Position numbers and translations under genes: made by a program
Shown: one piece after another, positions 4,619-16,777 of the stretch
How the letters are laid out: the number at the start of each line of letters is the position of its first letter
Numbering within the stretch: position 1 is the stretch's first letter
The notes under the pieces: generated by a model
Database searches by the model: none
What the model was told of the DNA's origin: nothing
What the model saw: the letters and a program-made list of their open reading frames with translations, nothing else
Source of the DNA: a virus
Taxonomy: Duplodnaviria > Heunggongvirae > Uroviricota > Caudoviricetes
DNA: 64,000 bases
IMG/VR virus record: IMGVR_UViG_2925939204_000001
Reading direction: 5' to 3' (one strand)

Positions 4619-5422
4619 TTGAGGATGCTTATGGGCCGTTTTGACGAATGGTTTGCTGACGATGCAAACCTGGCAAGTAAGGAGTCAGAACATGACAGCA
4701 CGCAGAGAGAAACGCCAGCGCCGATTGAAGCGAATGCAGGAGGCGCGCCGGAACATGGCAATACCGGTTCGGATTCATTCAGCATTCTGGAAGAGCAACC
4801 CGCCGCCAAAGCTGATAGCCATGATAATTTTGCTGATAGCAACGGTGGCCTTACTCCGGATGCTGGCGAATCAGATATAGCCATACTTCCATCTTCCCTG
4901 GCTGGCAGAGAACCGACTCCACAGTTAAAAGCACGCTATAACGGGCATAAAGCCTTTAACGACCAAATCCGCGCAGACTGGATGCTGATTATTGAATCCA
5001 GCCCAGACGCGTTTCAGGCTCTCTTATATCGACCAGATGTTGGCACATATGGGGTAGTCAGCGACGAAACAGGAGAAGAGTCATTCACTGAACTGGATAA
5101 CAACCAACGCGAACTGACTTACCAGGAACCTGAAATCGTTTATGTGCTGGATAACCCTGACGGGCGTGACTCTTTCCATGCGATTGACGCAGACGGTGAG
5201 CAGGATGGCTTAACCGATGATGTTCTGATTCTGCGTATTGCAGCAAATAACGTCCCCGTCGGCTCAATTCTTGAATGGAATGAAGAGATGGTAAACGGCG
5301 TAGCGCGCCGCTGGTGGTACGTGCACCGTATTTTTAGCTACGGCACACAGCATGTTGGTTCGCTTTACTACTGCATACCTGCCAGGAATTTTGATACGAC
5401 TCAAAACGGAGTGATCGAATGA
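4619..5422 (+). CDS. acidic protein, probable virion/baseplate-module component (267 aa)
   Basis: GAGGA SD before ATG; D/E-rich N-terminus; first gene of a four-gene overlapping plus-strand operon. Confidence 0.5.
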   Translation: MRMLMGRFDEWFADDANLASKESEHDSTQRETPAPIEANAGGAPEHGNTGSDSFSILEEQPAAKADSHDNFADSNGGLTPDAGESDIAILPSSLAGREPTPQLKARYNGHKAFNDQIRADWMLIIESSPDAFQALLYRPDVGTYGVVSDETGEESFTELDNNQRELTYQEPEIVYVLDNPDGRDSFHAIDADGEQDGLTDDVLILRIAANNVPVGSILEWNEEMVNGVARRWWYVHRIFSYGTQHVGSLYYCIPARNFDTTQNGVIE

Positions 5423-6186
5423 CTTCAAATAAAACCCTCCTGGCGCGAACAGGTGAATGGCAAACCTCACGTACAGGAAAATTCCAGACCACGGGCTTTG
5501 AAAACGTGGATAACGCGTTTGCGACGCTAATCAGCAACATTTTTTCTGATATCTTACTGGTGGCCCCCGCGCCGGAAGAAAAACGCTTTGCGTCATTCCT
5601 GAATCGTCCACCAGCAGAGCGTGTCTATGTGGCCCGTTTCGACAATGCGATCGAGTTTCTTAAAGCAGTTCGTCGCGCAAATGCCGGGCAAGGGAGAAAA
5701 CCTGAAAACCAGAACATTAACCGGGATGCTCTCCCCCTGGTCAATATCTCACGCACTATGGATATCAATTATATCAACGATGATCAGCAGATTGACCGCA
5801 AAAAAGTAGCCAGTTTTTGCGAACCGGATACCGGAATGCCTTTAGCAGAACTGGAATACACCCAGGCCATTCTGACGTATGACGTTACGTTAATGGCAAC
5901 TGATAAAGCGACCATGAGTCTGATGTGTAATTCGCTGGGCGCACGGCTTCGCCTGATGACAGGTACACAATTTGAAGCAACCACTCACCTTGTTCGTGTC
6001 CCGGTCCCGCTGATTTGCTCGATACAGGATGCCAAAGAAGTCGGCTTTACGGATGTTTCAGCACCAATTGGAGAAGAGCGTATTTATGCCACACAAGCGC
6101 CGATAAGTGTGATTGCAGACGTGATCACAGCATGGGAGTTGGACGCAAAACGTATTATTACCGAAACCTCGATATCTATGGGGTGA
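5419..6186 (+). CDS. hypothetical protein, tail/baseplate module (255 aa)
   Basis: 4-nt start/stop overlap with upstream gene (translational coupling). Confidence 0.5.
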   Translation: MTSNKTLLARTGEWQTSRTGKFQTTGFENVDNAFATLISNIFSDILLVAPAPEEKRFASFLNRPPAERVYVARFDNAIEFLKAVRRANAGQGRKPENQNINRDALPLVNISRTMDINYINDDQQIDRKKVASFCEPDTGMPLAELEYTQAILTYDVTLMATDKATMSLMCNSLGARLRLMTGTQFEATTHLVRVPVPLICSIQDAKEVGFTDVSAPIGEERIYATQAPISVIADVITAWELDAKRIITETSISMG

Positions 6187-10973: not shown

Positions 10974-12635
10974 TTAACCTAACTTCGCCCAGGTATCACG
11001 CAGCCCAACGGTGCGGTTAAATACCGGTTTTTCCGCCGTAGAATGGCGGCTGTCGAGGCAGAAATAACCTTCACGCTCAAACTGGAATGCTTTACCCGCT
11101 ACCGCTTCTTTCAGCGACGGTTCAGCAAAACCCTGTTTGATCACCAGCGATTCCGGGTTAATCACCGACAGGAAATCATCCGCAGCACCTGGGTTCGGCA
11201 CGCTGAACAGACGATCGTACAGGCGGATTTCAACCGGCAGCGCATGTGCCGCGCTCACCCAGTGAATAACGCCTTTCACTTTACGACCATCTGCCGGATC
11301 TTTGCTTAAGGTGTCGGCGTCATAAGTACAGAAGATGGTGGTGATATTGCCTTCGGCATCTTTCTCCACGCGTTCAGCCTTAATGACGTAAGCATTACGC
11401 AGACGCACTTCTTTACCCAGCACCAGACGTTTGTACTGCTTGTTAGCTTCTTCGCGGAAATCGGCGCGGTCGATCCAAATCTCACCGCTAAACGGCACCT
11501 GACGGCTACCCATTTCCGGTTTGTTTGGATGGTTCGGCATGGTGACCATTTCGCCTTCGCCCTGGTAGTTTTCGATAACCAGTTTCACCGGATCGATAAC
11601 CGCCATTGCGCGCGGCGCATTTTCGTTGAGATCTTCACGGATGCAGGATTCCAGCGACGCCATCTCAATGGTGTTGTCCTGCTTGGTCACGCCGATGCGT
11701 TTGCAGAACTCACGAATAGAAGCCGCAGTGTAACCACGACGACGCAGACCGGAAATGGTCGGCATACGCGGGTCATCCCAGCCTTCAACGTGCTTGTCGG
11801 TCACCAGCAGGTTCAGCTTACGCTTGGACATCACAGTGTATTCCAGATTCAGGCGCGAAAATTCGTACTGGCGCGGGTGAACAGGAATGGTGATGTTGTC
11901 CAGTACCCAGTCATACAGACGACGGTTGTCCTGGAACTCAAGCGTACACAGAGAGTGCGTAATACCTTCCAGCGCATCGCTGATGCAGTGGGTGAAGTCG
12001 TACATCGGGTAGATGCACCACTTGTTGCCAGTCTGGTGATGTTCAGCAAACTTAATGCGGTACAGCACCGGGTCGCGCATCACGATAAACGGCGAAGCCA
12101 TGTCGATTTTCGCACGCAGGCAGGCTTTACCTTCTTCAAAACCACCGGCACGCATTTTTTCGAACAGCGCCAGGTTCTCTTCAACGCTGCGGTCGCGGTA
12201 CGGGCTGTTTTTACCCGGCTGCGTCAGGGTGCCGCGGTATTCGCGGATCTGTTCCGGCGTCAGTTCGTCAACATACGCCAGGCCTTTGTTGATCAGTTCA
12301 ACAGCATAGGCATGGAGTTTGTCAAAATAATCGGAGGAGTAACGGATGTTGCCAGACCAGTGAAAACCTAACCATTCAACGTCGTTTTTAATCGACTCGA
12401 CGTACTCGATATCTTCTTTTACCGGGTTAGTGTCGTCGAAACGCAGGTTGCACTGGCCTTTATAGTCCTGGGCGATCCCGAAGTTCAGGCAGATAGATTT
12501 CGCATGACCAATATGCAGATAGCCATTCGGTTCCGGCGGGAAACGGGTATGTACTGTGGTGTGCTTACCACTGGCCAGATCTTCATCGATGATCTGACGA
12601 ATAAAGTTAGTCGGGCGGGCTTCTGCCTCACTCAT
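10974..12635 (-). CDS. glnS: glutaminyl-tRNA synthetase (host-like, full length 553 aa)
   Basis: Essentially colinear with E. coli GlnRS from [20 protein letters not shown], incl. class I HIGH motif (PNGYLHIGH) and VMSKR (KMSKS-type) motif. Confidence 0.95.
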
Positions 12636-12802
12636 TGTGGATTCCTCAAAGCGTAAACAACGTATAACAGCGTATGATCTTATAAGCCGAATAGGCTGAC
12701 AACCACTAGTTGATTAGAAATTACTTTCTATCGTTATTTCAATAATGAGCTTTTTCATGAAGCCCACTTTTGCGCATAAGTAAATTAATGACAAATGGTA
12801 CA

Positions 12803-12868
12803 CAATTGGAACCAAAAAGGATGTAAAGGTGCACCAAATTAGTGGTGTATTGGTGCACCTTTGGTTCA
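12803..12868. repeat. palindromic element AAAGGTGCACCAA-N12-TTGGTGCACCTTT with flanking TTGGAACC/GGTTCAA arms
   Basis: Perfect 13-bp inverted repeat (12825-12837 / 12850-12862) just downstream of the parA/RHH operon; candidate centromere or operator. Confidence 0.4.
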
Positions 12869-12903
12869 AGACTTTTTAAGTTCTAAAACCAACCTGAAAG
12901 ACT

Positions 12904-13191
12904 TTATTTTGCTTCCTCAGACTCCGCTAACATGAGGATAGCATGGCGGATCATATTCAATTTGCTGCGATTATGCTTTTTGCTCAACGCATCAAGTACC
13001 TGGTACTCGTATTCATTGAAACCAACACGAATAGATTTAAAATCACGTGGAGCGTCCTTATCGAGCACTTTGTTGTCTTCTGGTTGCTCACCCGGCACCA
13101 AATCAGCCTTACTTGCAAAATCCTCAATTCGGCGTTCAAGATCGGGGTCTTTTACTTCGGGGGCTTTTACCGATTTACGAGGCTTAATCAC
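12904..13191 (-). CDS. ParG/ParB-like ribbon-helix-helix centromere-binding protein (95 aa)
   Basis: Small basic protein with C-terminal RHH-like segment (SIRVGFNEYEYQVLDALSKKHNRSKLNMIRHAILML); overlaps parA stop by 8 nt. Confidence 0.65.
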   Translation of the reverse strand: MIKPRKSVKAPEVKDPDLERRIEDFASKADLVPGEQPEDNKVLDKDAPRDFKSIRVGFNEYEYQVLDALSKKHNRSKLNMIRHAILMLAESEEAK

Positions 13192-13825
13192 TTAATAACT
13201 CCTTAACCAACATCTGGATTTCACCTTTAGCTTTCCCGTTGTCCATCTCAACAACGCCCTTCCCTTCAGCCATGCAATCGCGGTAAACCTTACGATCACG
13301 AATGATGGTTTTCAGCAACTTCAGTTGCGGATATTCAGCCAGGTACTCTTTGGCCTCATTGGTTTCATTCACAACCGGATTGGATGGGGCCATTGTTAAG
13401 ACTGCGAACGCCTTAATGCTAGGATTAGGCATCAGGTCCAAAGCCTCTTCAAACACTTCAACAAAGTGTGCCAGCGTGTCTAAATCTGGTTGAGATGGTC
13501 TGAATGGGACCAACACAATATCTGCAGCGGTTATGCCTGTACGCATCTCTTTGCTATCGCGCCCGGCTGTATCAACAACAACAAATTCATAACGCTTATC
13601 CAGATCGAGAAGTGTTTCTCGAATATTACCAAACTTCTGGACACAATGAATTACAGGAGAAACCTCTGCCGTGTTACGGTCAGCTGCCCAGCGGGCAGCT
13701 GTTCCTTGCTTGTCTGCATCTAGTAACACTACATCCTTATTTGCGCGGGCAAGCTCCGCACAGATGTTTACGCTTGTGGTTGATTTTCCACAGCCACCTT
13801 TTTGGCTGACTACCAATATAATCAT
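13184..13825 (-). CDS. parA: ParA-type partition ATPase (small, type Ib)
   Basis: Deviant Walker A VVSQKGGCGKSTTS; likely start is the ATG giving MIILVVSQKGG with GAGGAA SD (track start 13855 is an upstream TTG). Confidence 0.85.
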   Translation of the reverse strand: MIILVVSQKGGCGKSTTSVNICAELARANKDVVLLDADKQGTAARWAADRNTAEVSPVIHCVQKFGNIRETLLDLDKRYEFVVVDTAGRDSKEMRTGITAADIVLVPFRPSQPDLDTLAHFVEVFEEALDLMPNPSIKAFAVLTMAPSNPVVNETNEAKEYLAEYPQLKLLKTIIRDRKVYRDCMAEGKGVVEMDNGKAKGEIQMLVKELLSD

Positions 13826-14112
13826 ATCCGTTCCTCGGTGTGATTTTGGTATCAAAACGGTTCCAGATAAGAGCCTTTTTGATGCGGGACAGGCTCTATA
13901 ATGGAGTCATGAATGTTTGGCAAAGTATAACATCAATCAGACCAAATACACCTTATATTGCATCCTATTTAACACGAAATCAGCCCTAAATTGGAACCAG
14001 ATACAAAATTGCACCATAACAGCACCTAAATGGTGCCAGTTCAACACTAATTAGACACCATTAAGGCACAAAAAGGGCTGCAATTTGCAGCCTTAAACCA
14101 GCACATCTTCTG

Positions 14113-14457
14113 TCAATCAGGTAGAGAGTCAGCCAGATTGCGCGCCGACGCGCTTTTGGCAACAACTTGCTCCTTCACTGGCTCAATGGAGGCAGGGCGC
14201 TCCTCAACCGCAGCTGGTAGTTCCAGGAAGGATGCCAGCATTTTTCGGATCAGCTCCGGGTTATTGTCTTCGGTCAGCAGGGAAGCCAGTAATCCTGGAA
14301 GCCTGCTATCGACTTCTCCCAGCGCAAGCCCTGCCAACAATGCAGTTCTTGCCATATCGCTATGTTTTTTTATCTTCTCGCTCGCCGCCTTTTCATTGGC
14401 ATAAGCCTCTGGGCGAAGATAAATCATCACTTTCTTACGTTCCTGAGACATGGACAT
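14113..14457 (-). CDS. parR: ParR/StbB-like centromere-binding protein
   Basis: RTALLAGLALGEVDSRLPGLLASLLTED resembles R1 ParR (RAALTAGLALYRQDPRTPFLLCELLTKE); directly downstream of parM. Confidence 0.7.
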   Translation of the reverse strand: MSMSQERKKVMIYLRPEAYANEKAASEKIKKHSDMARTALLAGLALGEVDSRLPGLLASLLTEDNNPELIRKMLASFLELPAAVEERPASIEPVKEQVVAKSASARNLADSLPD

Positions 14458-14463
14458 ACCTCG

Positions 14464-15420
14464 TTAACCGATTGCTTTCAGGCCATGAACAAGAGCAAGT
14501 TGCGGGTCATCCGCCACGAAGAAACGGTCATCACGAATATTAACTTGCTCGCGAATTGCATCTGCCACCAGCGGTGCGCCACCACCGATCACCATGACAT
14601 GCGTATATCCTTTAAAGTCGCCAATCACATCAAGAACGCGGGTACGCAGACGGTCAATGCTTGCGGCAATGGCCTTTTTCACATCACCAATCGCTGATGG
14701 GTCATTGATATTGTCGTTCAGATAATCTTCATCGTGGCGGTTAATAATGAGCTGATCAACATTGTAATTTGACGTTTCGGTATTGGCTCTGGCAAGTGCT
14801 TGCCTTACTTCCCTGGTAACCAGAGAGACGCCAAGATTCGAATCGCCAAAAACACGGGAAACTGCCGTCATTTGCCCGGCGACCATTGAAACATCAAGGG
14901 TAGTTCCACCCAAATCGACGATAAGAATAGAATGGGCAGGGTTCAGATTGTCGCACAGGCCAATTCCTGCCGGAATAGACTCCGGTCGTACCGTAACTTT
15001 CTTAATCGTGAACACATTGCCTTTATTCAGCGTGACGGGGCGCATAAGGCTGGCTTTCTTGCGCTCGATGTTATCGAGATTGTATTGCGCGTCGTCGTCG
15101 TAAAACTCCGCCAGAGGCAGCGTGACCACAATTTCTACTTCCTGCGGCTCAATGCCACTTGTCAGCAGGGCATGGTGAACAGCCAGGACGTTAAGCGGGC
15201 TGTATTGCCATTCCACGTTATTCGTCGGCAGAACATCTGGCGAGATCAAATCATACGAATACTTTTCGTCGTCAATGACATAGTTAAACGGCTTGCCAGC
15301 ACCAAATGTTGCTGACCATCCGCGCTTAAAGCTGTTAGGGCTGATGTGAGTGCGAGTTTCCCCGTCGTGCTCCCACAGCATTTTGATATTGGTTGAACCA
15401 TCATCGATAAAAATGCGCAT
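14464..15420 (-). CDS. parM: ParM/StbA actin-like segregation ATPase
   Basis: N-terminal MRIFIDDGSTNIK and IVDLGGTTLD actin-fold phosphate motifs; start taken at internal ATG with GGAG SD. Confidence 0.85.
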   Translation of the reverse strand: MRIFIDDGSTNIKMLWEHDGETRTHISPNSFKRGWSATFGAGKPFNYVIDDEKYSYDLISPDVLPTNNVEWQYSPLNVLAVHHALLTSGIEPQEVEIVVTLPLAEFYDDDAQYNLDNIERKKASLMRPVTLNKGNVFTIKKVTVRPESIPAGIGLCDNLNPAHSILIVDLGGTTLDVSMVAGQMTAVSRVFGDSNLGVSLVTREVRQALARANTETSNYNVDQLIINRHDEDYLNDNINDPSAIGDVKKAIAASIDRLRTRVLDVIGDFKGYTHVMVIGGGAPLVADAIREQVNIRDDRFFVADDPQLALVHGLKAIG

Positions 15421-15445
15421 CTTCTTGCTCCACTTCTGAGACACA

Positions 15446-15601
15446 TTTGAGAATCAAAATGTAATTTTAAAAGAGAAGCACCCAAAAATCCACACCAAAC
15501 GAGATAAAGAAGAGCGATTGTTGAGTTTATTTTGAGAATATCTTGATCACCCACCGAATGATGGTCTGACAGTGAGATTTATTTGAGAACGAATTGAGAA
15601 T
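15446..15601. repeat. parC-like centromere: six TTGAGAA(T/C)-type repeats, paired 10-11 bp apart
   Basis: Copies at 15447, 15522, 15532, 15573, 15583, 15594 immediately upstream of parM. Confidence 0.5.
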
Positions 15602-15686
15602 GCAAAAATATTCCGAAATTTAACTCTCCGTTTGAATGACGAAATAACAAAGTGATGACAATAGGAGGATAACCAGGAGGTGAAGA

Positions 15687-15971
15687 ATGAGCGCAATAGC
15701 CACCAGCGACACCCTTTGTTCTGGTCACGGAGGATTTCCGCCGCGACTGGTAGCTGAAACCGTTCCCTGGTTCACCGTTAACGGTAAGCCAGTTGTTGTA
15801 GATGGTGCCATGTTTCCCAGTCACACTGACGGTAACAGTGCACATCCAGGGGCAGCTGTATCGACGCGAGTATGGTTTTCGATAGGTGGAAAGGGAGTTG
15901 TCTGTGTAGGCGATCCGCTTTCTTGTGGTTCTGTTATCGCCAACGGCGAGGATATTTTTCAGGTTGCATAA
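15687..15971 (+). CDS. PAAR-like (spike-tip-like) small protein (94 aa)
   Basis: Repeated NGKPVVVDGA / GGKGVVCVGDPLSCG pattern typical of PAAR folds; very strong SD (AGGAGG); stop overlaps next start (TAATG). Confidence 0.45.
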   Translation: MSAIATSDTLCSGHGGFPPRLVAETVPWFTVNGKPVVVDGAMFPSHTDGNSAHPGAAVSTRVWFSIGGKGVVCVGDPLSCGSVIANGEDIFQVA

Positions 15972-16777
15972 TGCTTGATTCAATAGGTGAAGTTAAAGCC
16001 TTCAAAATTCTGTCAGATGCCGGTATCTCTACACCAGAATCTATAACCATAAGCCGGGCAGCTTCTGTAAAAGCCTCATCGCTCGCCAGCGCCATACAGG
16101 GAATAGTTCACGCCGATAAAACCTATCCTGATTCTGTTTCGGCCTGGACTACTCAATTGCTTGGCTTTTCTGAACAGCTCAATGAGGCCAGCAAAGCGTC
16201 TTCATCACTGGCTGATTCTCTTTCCCCATACACCAAGCCATCAGAGCTGTTACAGATGAAGATTGGCTGGGAATGCTACGCAAAAGGTAACGAGCTGACC
16301 CCCATACCTGCTTTCGCCCTTGTTGAGGGAATGGGGAATGTTTCCATTCCGCAATCTCTAACGGACGCATTGACGGCGCTAAAACTTGATGCTCTGAAAA
16401 CCGCCATGAACGCCATTAACGCAAAAATTGAAGCTGCCGGAAGTGCTGGTGGTGGTGATAGCAATGGTGGACAGGGTGGTGCTGGGGGCGCTCAGGCTCC
16501 AGTCATTACTCAGGATGAAATTGATGCTTTACGGGAAGCAGTGACAGCCGCCGAAGCTTTACTCTCCGAAATTAACTCAGCAAGTGAGAGTGTCGTAGCC
16601 CTTACAGGTCGCATTAAAACGTCAACCACTCAGGCAACCAAAGGTTTAGAGAACGCTGTCGCCATCACGTTAACTGGTTCTCTACTGGATGATGCAGTAA
16701 TGAGTCCGGCACTCAGTTTAATCATGCCACAAGGCGTTATCGATGCGCTCCAAAAGAACACCAAAAAGGAACCATAG
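15971..16777 (+). CDS. hypothetical protein with Gly-rich linker (268 aa)
   Basis: Translationally coupled to PAAR-like gene; no motif recognised. Confidence 0.5.
   Translation: MLDSIGEVKAFKILSDAGISTPESITISRAASVKASSLASAIQGIVHADKTYPDSVSAWTTQLLGFSEQLNEASKASSSLADSLSPYTKPSELLQMKIGWECYAKGNELTPIPAFALVEGMGNVSIPQSLTDALTALKLDALKTAMNAINAKIEAAGSAGGGDSNGGQGGAGGAQAPVITQDEIDALREAVTAAEALLSEINSASESVVALTGRIKTSTTQATKGLENAVAITLTGSLLDDAVMSPALSLIMPQGVIDALQKNTKKEP

Follow-up and report, generated by a model that had tools for sequence, protein, structure and literature searches.

Background

Plasmid pB171's double par locus has been the textbook case of two different partition systems on one plasmid since 2001. 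In this locus a type II system (par1, ordered parC-parM-parR) lies directly beside a type Ib system (par2, ordered parC1-parA-parB-parC2), and Ebersbach and Gerdes reportedly found in 2001 that both halves stabilise plasmids. In another type II system, that of plasmid R1, parC consists of ten 11-bp units, with the promoter in the middle and five units to either side of it. For the type Ib ParF-ParG-parH system of TP228, the centromere has been described as short, degenerate boxes in an array that also serves as operator (PMC3130281).

A 2026 survey found that approximately 19% of the PLSDB plasmids with a recognisable partition system have more than one, and 971 PLSDB accessions have exactly the combination of type I-RHH and type II (PMC13245405). 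The original prediction for the locus described here considered two systems uncommon for an element of approximately 100 kb, a view that neither this count nor the classic pB171 case supports. Double loci of types Ib and II are already established and frequent, and no concept is changed by another example. What is new is the assignment of a ribbon-helix-helix (RHH) protein, the maps of candidate centromeres, the tandem layout, and the evidence for modular swapping of the ParA cassette. The same locus is present in phage D6 as orf58-orf61 (MF356679 / NC_050154), where the record names StbA, StbB and a 'possible ParA partitioning function', and these D6 records contain no annotated centromere features. 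In a D6-like Salmonella plasmid, parA, stbB and parM were given as partition functions (PMC6799933).

Results and discussion

A tandem double partition locus

The window, which is the whole 64,000-nt stretch of DNA that was analysed, is a D6-like phage-plasmid, 100% identical to the E. coli plasmid NZ_CP020051.1 and 98.2% identical to phage D6. Its minus strand encodes, in order, parM, parR, a terminator, parA (213 aa) and orf61 (95 aa). All four genes are intact, and the two cassettes are co-oriented in tandem. The original prediction had placed parA plus an RHH gene adjacent to, and in the same orientation as, parM plus parR; these gene coordinates were correct, and the type Ib ParA/RHH and type II ParM/ParR identities were supported by domain, structure and homology searches. 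Sequence comparisons confirmed that the pairing is real, with two intact and different predicted plasmid-segregation machines, each with its own candidate repeat centromere.

For gene comparisons with pB171, plasmid 55989p was used as a stand-in; its ParR is 100% identical to the 77 pB171 ParR residues in the 2JD3 alignment. In this pB171-type locus par1 and par2 are divergent and share a 228-bp region with parC1 control, whereas the cassettes of the window are in tandem with a terminator between them. The window did not contain the divergent par1/par2 pair around one shared central region that characterises a pB171-type double par locus. The element separating the cassettes is an intrinsic-terminator-like hairpin on the minus strand (14076..14092; GGCTGCAAATTGCAGCC then CTTTTTGTG), located 21 nt past the parR stop and kept in six of six D6-like loci amid diverged DNA. 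The cassettes are in tandem with a terminator between them, so the layout provides no inbuilt shared region by which ParB could cross-regulate the parM promoter. Candidate ParB-type boxes near the parM -35 (11 consensus matches in 15361-15480), which would resemble the cross-talk of pB171, were rejected because the TGGTG/GGGTGC elements were not conserved in two divergent D6-like loci (L005 and L006) and were not 11 bp apart.

The type II cassette

The parM gene (14464..15420, minus strand) encodes a 318-aa actin-like segregation ATPase. The protein matched the Pfam families StbA_N (1.8e-69) and ParM C-terminal domain (3.7e-55), and aligned with R1 ParM structures in the PDB over 318 of 320 residues (E=1e-111). 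It was 54% identical to an IncF R1-type ParM over the full length and 43% identical to the pB171-type ParM. The parR (stbB) gene begins 7-13 nt past the parM stop and extends over 14113..14457 on the minus strand, or over 14113-14451 if translation starts at the second ATG, which is more likely because the Shine-Dalgarno spacing is better. Its 112-114 aa product was assigned by homology as a type II centromere-binding protein: it matched Plasmid_stab_B (PF10784; 3.5e-11, 43 bits against a 25-bit cutoff), the same Pfam family as the ParR of the R1/R100 parMRC (stbAB) system, and its alignment with the structure of pB171 ParR (2JD3) covered residues 4-80 of the latter (E=1e-6). Its identities were 32% to pB171 ParR and 31% to R1-type ParR.

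Seven 11-bp units with the gene-strand core TTCTCAA, found 5' of parM at 15436..15601 on the minus strand, form a candidate type II centromere and operator resembling parC. The original prediction described TTGAGAA-type repeats here; the repeats are real, but they do not form one continuous array. Four exact copies (starting at 15447, 15532, 15583 and 15594) and three degenerate copies (15436 CTGAGAC, 15521 TTGAGTT and 15572 GTGAGAT) are arranged in clusters of three (cores 15594-15600, 15583-15589 and 15572-15578), two (15532-15538 and 15521-15527) and two (15447-15453 and 15436-15442), with a spacing of 11 bp within clusters and gaps of 40 and 74 bp between them. Exact TTGAGAA occurs only 12 times on both strands of the entire 64 kb, and four of these copies are within this 154-bp stretch in a single orientation. 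The TTCTCAA cores were invariant in L005 and L006, with diverged spacers.

A putative parM promoter (15464..15492, minus strand) is located between the second and third clusters and was placed by conservation: the hexamers TGGATT (15487-15492) and TAAAAT (15464-15469), separated by a 17-nt spacer, were both invariant in six of six aligned loci. The third cluster lies between this promoter and the ribosome-binding site. A simple sigma-70 promoter scan picked up neither this promoter nor that of parA, both of which were inferred from conservation.

The repeats could instead be operators at which a phage regulator controls the divergent PAAR/upfC-upfB genes, as would fit their position in the 266 bp that separate parM from a divergent PAAR-domain gene. 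Several observations make this very unlikely. The same three-cluster layout of 11-bp units with a CTCA core was found 5' of parM in a Klebsiella locus (ParR 55% identical) and on a conjugative Providencia plasmid (ParR 41% identical), neither of which has a PAAR neighbour. The conserved parM promoter has units on both sides, like the promoter in R1 parC, and L005 has exactly one extra 11-bp unit, which adjoins the parM start.

Judged from its genes and repeats, the cassette combines what is expected of a type II system: an actin-like ParM, a small ParR adaptor with an N-terminal RHH, encoded directly 3' of parM, and phased parC-like repeats. Direct repeats of 11 bp surround the parM promoter in both R1 and the window, but the unit sequences are unrelated (AAACCC-type in an IncF locus, TTCTCAA in the window) and the seven units in a 3+2+2 layout differ from the 5+5 of R1.

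The type Ib cassette

The parA gene (13184..13825, minus strand; ATG at 13825) encodes a small type Ib Walker ATPase of 213 aa, in which a deviant Walker A motif, KGGCGKST, could be read at residues 9-16 and which has no N-terminal HTH domain. Pfam matches were to AAA_31, CbiA and MipZ. The NCBIfam model ParA_partition was matched over all of its positions (1-203 of 203; 8.5e-48) with 162.6 bits, which is under the 180-bit equivalog cutoff. The protein aligned end-to-end with the 206-aa ParF/TP228 ParA in the PDB (E=1e-18) and was 43% identical to the pB171-type par2 ParA (E=8e-59); TP228 ParF is the more distant of the two.

The gene that follows, orf61 (12904..13191, minus strand), overlaps parA by 8 bp and encodes a 95-aa ParB-like protein that is a 'hypothetical protein' in the D6 and RefSeq annotations. 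On its own it had no Pfam match and no PDB sequence match, and no significant sequence match was found to any solved or characterised centromere-binding protein (BLASTP against pB171 ParB, E=0.14). It did match an Arc-like repressor in PHROG (1.8e-4), and members of its family matched the RHH-clan Pfam families RHH_1, NikA-like, DUF6290, RHH_7 and TraY. The relatives were collected by exhaustive profile search, since a word-index search reached only those at least 76% identical. A PDB profile search with 49 family sequences returned CopG only, at a non-significant level (E ~0.6; all PDB profile matches >0.2). AlphaFold2 gave a poor model with just nine close sequences (mean pLDDT 57). With the 49-sequence alignment the mean pLDDT was 83, and a strand region followed by two helices was predicted at residues 53-92. 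The top PDB matches to this model in Foldseek were overwhelmingly RHH proteins, including ParG (1P94), with an rmsd of 1.2-2.0 A over 40-43 residues; owing to the shortness of the domain (about 40 residues), the E-values were weak, none being better than 0.18. The protein has a conserved N-terminal M-x-K-x-R, a helix at 16-29, a flexible linker, and the C-terminal ribbon-helix-helix at approximately 53-92, and so resembles the ParG of TP228, in which a flexible N-terminal region likewise precedes an RHH domain at the C-terminus. Fold modelling and family matches show that orf61 encodes an RHH protein, predicted to be a centromere-binding partner of ParA.

Both flanks of this cassette contain 11-bp units with the core TGGTRC(C). 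Upstream, a parC1-like distal array for the type Ib system (13966..14060, minus strand) contains approximately nine units, including TGGTGTCTAAT, TAGTGTTGAAC, TGGCACCATTT, AGGTGCTGTTA and TGGTGCAATTT. Three putative operator-proximal units (TGGAACCGTTT, TGATACCAAAA and TCACACCGAGG; 13834..13866, minus strand) abut the parA ribosome-binding site, and a 10/11 match to the family consensus was found at 13844/13847. These two sets are what the degenerate copies originally noted at 13980-14070 resolve to. Downstream, 3' of orf61, a parC2-like array (12784..12870, minus strand) contains approximately seven units in register (CTTGAACCAAA, GGTGCACCAAT, ACACCACTAAT and TTGGTGCACCT, then, further on, TTGGTTCCAAT and TGTGTACCATT). 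By three scoring schemes it is the 120-bp segment with the most TGGTRC motif in the 64 kb. It belongs to the par cassette rather than to glnS, because L005 and L006 lack glnS and the array is still directly after the orf61 stop. Inside it, the perfect 13-bp palindrome that had been predicted is present as an inverted repeat (AAAGGTGCACCAA at 12825-12837 and TTGGTGCACCTTT at 12850-12862), although a better reading of the GGTGCACC palindrome is that it comprises two of the approximately seven 11-bp units, rather than being an element apart. This inverted repeat may double as a terminator hairpin (RNA fold z-score -4.0). Rfam gave nothing credible over 12000-16500, the sole match being a microRNA family on the palindrome (E=0.16).

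A putative extended -10 promoter element for parA (TGtTATACT; 13924..13932, minus strand) was inferred from conservation; of the conserved blocks in the alignment of the DNA between parR and parA, TTG(A/C)TGTTATACT was the longest.

The flanking repeats were scored with an 11-mer consensus derived from distant relatives, with the window itself left out. The two parA flanks ranked first (12 matches) and third (10 matches) among all 120-bp segments (mean 2.1, sd 1.6). The upstream array is more degenerate here than in relatives and alone ranked third to tenth; strict counting of GGTRC under-detects it, with three matches. In the relatives, motif density was 14.0 per kb in the flanks of the parA cassette versus 4.5 per kb elsewhere (Poisson p = 3.5e-28), and clean 11-bp arrays were present on both flanks in Hahella, Zhongshania and Kangiella. 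The main array of the distant relatives is at the position equivalent to 13834..13866, beside the parA ribosome-binding site. Arrays homologous to 13966..14060 were found in L003, L005 and L006, with the motif kept and the sequence diverged. The candidate centromeres originally proposed beside both cassettes have survived these comparative tests.

A small ParA, an RHH partner directly after parA, and iterated repeats beside the operon point to a type Ib system. As in pB171 par2, the ParA partner is small (91 aa in pB171, 95 aa here) and repeat arrays flank the parA operon on two sides (parC1 and parC2). The motif is TCA(C/T)A-type in the pB171-type locus and TGGTRC in the window, and the parM-side units differ too. 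Since ParB gave E=0.14, the motifs differ, and ParA is homologous at 43%, the cassette is regarded as a par2-like sister lineage rather than as a member of pB171 par2. It also differs from TP228, whose parH has tetramer boxes in one upstream array instead of 11-bp units on both flanks.

It was also considered whether ParA and the RHH protein have no part in partition and instead form a module of the ParA family, VirC1/VirC2-like or other, that targets the flanking repeats for positioning or DNA processing. ParA did match VirC1 in Pfam (3.7e-12) and NCBIfam (6.7e-14), and VirC2, too, is of the RHH type. At 51.8 bits, however, the VirC1 score is far under the 313-bit cutoff, and the matches to ParA_partition, ParF and pB171 ParA given above are much stronger. 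The element lacks a relaxase and is non-mobilizable in 131 of the 133 PLSDB records that matched the locus, and the small ParA with an overlapping small RHH gene and repeats on both flanks is the layout of pB171 par2. Such a module is extremely improbable, and assignment to partition is preferred.

Conservation and exchange of the cassettes

At least 80% of the double par locus was covered in 105 of the 133 matching PLSDB records. Where records listed with the parMR half only were opened, a diverged ParA cassette was present in each. Both cassettes were kept by every D6-like plasmid in which the locus was inspected, by annotation or gene calls. All four genes are under purifying selection, with dN/dS values of 0.02-0.10 for parM, 0.07-0.13 for parR, approximately 0.03 for parA and 0.06-0.13 for orf61 (0.02-0.13 overall).

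These observations bear on whether a single cassette partitions the plasmid while the other is a redundant passenger, or mainly a transcription regulator or an incompatibility determinant that, for example, excludes related D6-like plasmids. There is precedent in SCP1, which has two functional partition systems, one of which alone matters under laboratory conditions (PMC13245405). In the D6-like plasmid NZ_CP115379.1, parM is split into ORFs of 261 and 85 aa and the ParA cassette is intact, although this single broken parM may be a sequencing error. The ParA cassette has been swapped between near-identical backbones, as expected of an incompatibility or specificity determinant. On the other side are the strong purifying selection on all four genes, the presence of both cassettes in every inspected D6-like locus, and the reported stabilisation of plasmids by each half of the pB171 double locus. 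On balance, a role in partition for only one cassette is unlikely, and a locus in which both cassettes partition is favored.

A related-locus search for the orf61 family, seeded with 10 sequences, found ParA directly upstream of the orf61 relative in 27 of 28 distant loci across the Gammaproteobacteria. In 27 of 28 unrelated genomes the ParA-RHH pair was a free-standing two-gene module, with ParM/ParR absent within 2.5 kb. Within the D6 lineage, the ParA cassette has been exchanged beside a nearly unchanged parMR. The cointegrate history originally suggested is not needed for a cassette that stands alone elsewhere and is swapped as a unit within the lineage. One tentative reading is that the ParA-RHH cassette belongs to a type Ib family, widespread in the Gammaproteobacteria and not previously characterised, in which each flank has an 11-bp TGGTACCAAA-type centromere. 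Its exchange in the D6 lineage, with the upstream array, parA and the greater part of the RHH gene moving together, would then fit selection that diversifies the specificity of partition, and the invariant type II system would serve as a fallback.

Proposed function of the locus

The identified genes, the class of fold, the layout of the repeats, the conservation, the purifying selection and the modular distribution described above indicate that this region is very probably a double partition locus of two tandem cassettes, through which both daughter cells retain the low-copy D6-like prophage-plasmid. Comparison with the known systems predicts DNA binding and autoregulation, as well as stimulation of the ATPase and a contribution of each cassette to stability. 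In the type II cassette, ParR dimers would occupy the 11-bp TTCTCAA units to either side of the parM promoter, forming the partition complex and repressing the operon simultaneously. ParM-ATP filaments captured by these ParR-DNA complexes would then drive the sister plasmids away from each other, as they do in R1 and pB171 par1. The type Ib cassette would be expressed from its own promoter behind the parR terminator. Its 95-aa RHH protein would bind the TGGTRC(C)AAA-type 11-bp units on both flanks of the operon and autoregulate at the promoter-proximal units, and its conserved basic N-terminal tail and helix may stimulate nucleoid-bound ParA-ATP. As with pB171 par2 and TP228 ParFG, the outcome would be an even spacing of plasmids over the nucleoid.

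Conclusions

The 133 PLSDB records matching this locus indicate that D6-like phage-plasmids occur commonly in E. coli, Salmonella and Shigella. They persist at low copy number, and therefore the segregation machinery decides how stably they are carried. The assignment of orf61 and the three mapped candidate arrays are concrete targets for stability, incompatibility and plasmid-curing experiments, and the tandem layout is a natural contrast to the divergent, cross-regulated double locus of pB171. If partition specificity is indeed diversifying in this lineage, it would let related phage-plasmids co-reside or displace each other.

The D6-like element and its par genes

The 3.1-kb par region was identical (100%) to a region of the 91-kb E. 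coli plasmid NZ_CP020051.1 and 98.2% identical to Escherichia phage D6. It matched 133 PLSDB plasmids from Escherichia, Salmonella and Shigella hosts, nearly all of them non-mobilizable and about 90 kb in size. The D6 record annotates orf58 as StbA type, orf59 as StbB type, orf60 as a possible ParA partitioning function, and orf61 as a hypothetical protein, and the partition functions of a D6-like Salmonella plasmid have been given as parA, stbB and parM (PMC6799933). The element and every par gene except orf61 are therefore already known. All four genes are on the minus strand: parM (14464-15420, from the ATG giving MRIFIDDGSTNIK), parR (14113-14457, or 14113-14451 from the second ATG), parA (13184-13825, 213 aa), and orf61 (12904-13191, 95 aa), the last two overlapping by 8 bp. 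The coordinates in the original prediction for both gene pairs all held on re-examination.

The par locus lies between a glutaminyl-tRNA synthetase gene and a PAAR/upfC gene. The full-length synthetase gene is directly downstream (10974-12635, minus strand). It looks like a captured host gene that is variably present in the D6-like lineage, because identity to E. coli chromosomal glnS is 91-95% over the 5' end and leader (12601-12722) and because it is entirely absent from two divergent D6-like contigs, L005 and L006 (5286-5428), where orf61 is followed directly by the methyltransferase gene. On the other side, a PAAR-motif protein (94 aa, similar to P1 upfC; 15687-15971, plus strand) is encoded divergently from parM. 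An upfB-like ORF without a Pfam match follows it (15872-16777, plus strand); two 120-bp windows in this ORF (16446 and 16671) are unusually rich in TGGTGC-like hexamers, probably owing to its Gly/Ala-rich coding sequence.

The type II cassette

ParM matched both Pfam ParM domains and the R1 ParM structures (E=1e-111), and was 54% identical to the IncF R1-type ParM and 43% identical to the pB171-type ParM. ParR contained PF10784 and aligned with the pB171 ParR structure 2JD3. Its identity to the R1-type and pB171 reference proteins was only 31-32%, so a DNA specificity different from that of both would be expected.

The TTGAGAA repeats predicted upstream of parM are real, with four exact and three degenerate copies spaced 11 bp apart within clusters. 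They do not form one unbroken phased run; gaps of 40 and 74 bp separate three clusters (3+2+2). The 64 kb contains just 12 exact TTGAGAA/TTCTCAA heptamers, four of them in a single orientation within 154 bp upstream of parM. Alignment of this region with four divergent D6-like contigs (L003-L006) showed that the TTCTCAA cores and a putative TGGATT-N17-TAAAAT promoter were invariant while the spacers diverged. In L005, exactly one extra 11-bp unit, TCTCAAATGTG, adjoined the parM start (2760-2780, aligning to about 15447-15457 in the window).

The repeats could alternatively serve the divergent phage gene as its operator. However, in two distant parMR loci, from Klebsiella (ParM 77% and ParR 55% identical) and from a Providencia conjugative plasmid (ParM 70% and ParR 41% identical), 11-bp units with a (T)CTCA core likewise surround the promoter in three clusters, and there is no PAAR gene nearby in either locus. 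Because the layout is kept without that gene, the phage-operator reading was rejected, and the TTCTCAA repeats are a candidate parC-type centromere and operator. They are unrelated to the AAACCC-type units of the R1-type locus.

Two elements resembling the motif of the ParA cassette, TGGTGT and TGGGTGC (15478-15497), overlap the parM -35 region, and the second-best score for the family 11-mer fell to the 120-bp window at 15361. These elements could hint at cross-regulation like that of pB171, but their spacing is not 11 bp and they are not kept in L005 and L006.

ParA and its predicted partner, orf61

The type Ib cassette follows a conserved, putative terminator hairpin after parR (14076-14092). 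ParA has a deviant Walker A motif (KGGCGKST) and aligned over the full length with both TP228 ParF (E=1e-18) and the NCBIfam ParA_partition model (162.6 bits, just below the 180-bit cutoff). It was 43% identical to the par2 ParA of a pB171-type double locus (E=8e-59).

Searched alone, orf61 had no Pfam match and no PDB sequence match. An exhaustive profile search recovered 124 family representatives of about 65-100 aa, whose C-terminal halves matched families of the ribbon-helix-helix (RHH) clan (RHH_1/CopG, NikA-like, DUF6290, RHH_7, and TraY); a PHROG Arc-like profile matched orf61 residues 53-94. An AlphaFold2 model from a 49-sequence alignment (mean pLDDT 83) consisted of a helix at 16-29, a linker, and then an extended segment and two helices at 53-92. 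Foldseek matches to this model in the PDB were overwhelmingly RHH proteins, including CopA, ParG (1P94), CopG, Arc, and TacA, with rmsd 1.2-2.0 Å over 40-43 residues and, for so small a domain, weak E-values. Nearly invariant family residues were M1, R5, F25, and A29 in the N-terminal part and K52, N59, E62, L66, R75, R82, and A84 in the RHH part.

Linkage was surveyed at 28 loci with orf61 relatives on one-genome-per-species contigs, among them Sodalis, Serratia, Rahnella, Chimaeribacter, Aeromonas, Hahella, Kangiella, and Methylococcales. In 27 of the 28, a 57-70% identical ParA ended directly before the orf61 relative, and none of these 27 had ParM or ParR within 2.5 kb. Because of the RHH evidence and this adjacency, orf61 is predicted to bind the centromere as the partner of ParA, the two genes forming a free-standing module.

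Candidate centromeres flanking the ParA cassette

Written with 11 nt per row, the intergenic regions showed about nine units upstream of the putative parA promoter (13966-14060; TGGTGTCTAAT, TAGTGTTGAAC, TGGCACCATTT, AGGTGCTGTTA, TGGTGCAATTT and others), three units adjoining the ribosome-binding site (13834-13866), and about seven after the orf61 stop (12784-12870). The perfect 13-bp inverted repeat noticed earlier is present (12825-12837 and 12850-12862) and is two units of the downstream array in opposite orientation. Among 120-bp windows of the 64 kb, the downstream array was the densest by three different scorings, and the upstream array ranked 3rd to 10th.

The comparative evidence for these arrays is stronger than the within-window ranking. 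Both flanks of the parA cassette were the top two windows of the 10-kb loci from L003 and L005; in that of L006 the downstream flank was first and the upstream flank was among four windows tied for second. In L005 and L006, which lack glnS, the array still directly followed orf61 and preceded a canonical terminator. Across 21 non-D6 loci, the GGTRC core occurred at 14.0 per kb in the flanks and 4.5 per kb elsewhere (Poisson p = 3.5e-28). Clean arrays of 11-bp units (type TGGTACCAAAA CGGTGCCGATT) bordered the operon on either side in Hahella, Zhongshania, and Kangiella, and a consensus from these distant relatives alone picked out both flanks in the window.

Selection and cassette replacement

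All four par genes were intact in the D6-like loci inspected, except parM of NZ_CP115379.1, and their pairwise dN/dS was 0.02-0.13. In NZ_CP115379.1, the gene table lacks parM, which is split into ORFs of 261 and 85 aa (4914-5979 of the locus), whereas nothing is broken in parR or the ParA cassette. Either a natural knock-out of the type II system or an error in the sequence could explain the split gene. Records matching only the parMR half by megablast still contained ParA and a 94-aa ORF, both more diverged.

Between the window and L003, dS was 0.01-0.04 for parM and parR and saturated for parA and orf61 (85% and 77% protein identity, respectively). The parR-parA spacer was also highly diverged (mosaic span 12904-14112 in the window, 4083-5285 in L003), and the DNA 3' of the orf61 stop was nearly identical again, which places one breakpoint immediately past the parR stop and the other close to the 3' end of orf61. 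By this uneven divergence, the array upstream of parA, parA itself, and the greater part of orf61 have been replaced as one cassette.

Comparison with known double partition loci

The closest system is the double par locus of pB171, in which the same two machine types are adjacent and ParA, ParM, and ParR are homologous. The parC1-parA-parB-parC2 logic of par2 is matched by the arrays on both flanks in the window. In contrast to the tandem cassettes of the window, those of pB171 are divergent around a shared control region, with another RHH protein and other repeats: the pB171-type ParB had no detectable similarity to orf61 (E=0.14), and its locus carries TCA(C/T)A-type repeats rather than TGGTRC. 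Double partition had been called uncommon, a view that fails given a 2026 survey reporting more than one system in approximately 19% of PLSDB plasmids with recognisable systems, and type I-RHH plus type II in 971 PLSDB plasmids (PMC13245405).

For both cassettes, we infer the steps of binding, regulation, and stabilisation. Only four points are new: orf61 and its family have been assigned a predicted role, 11-bp TGGTRC units occur family-wide on either side of the ParA cassette, this lineage of ParR has a candidate parC with a CTCA core, and the two cassettes have a layout that is tandem and modular.
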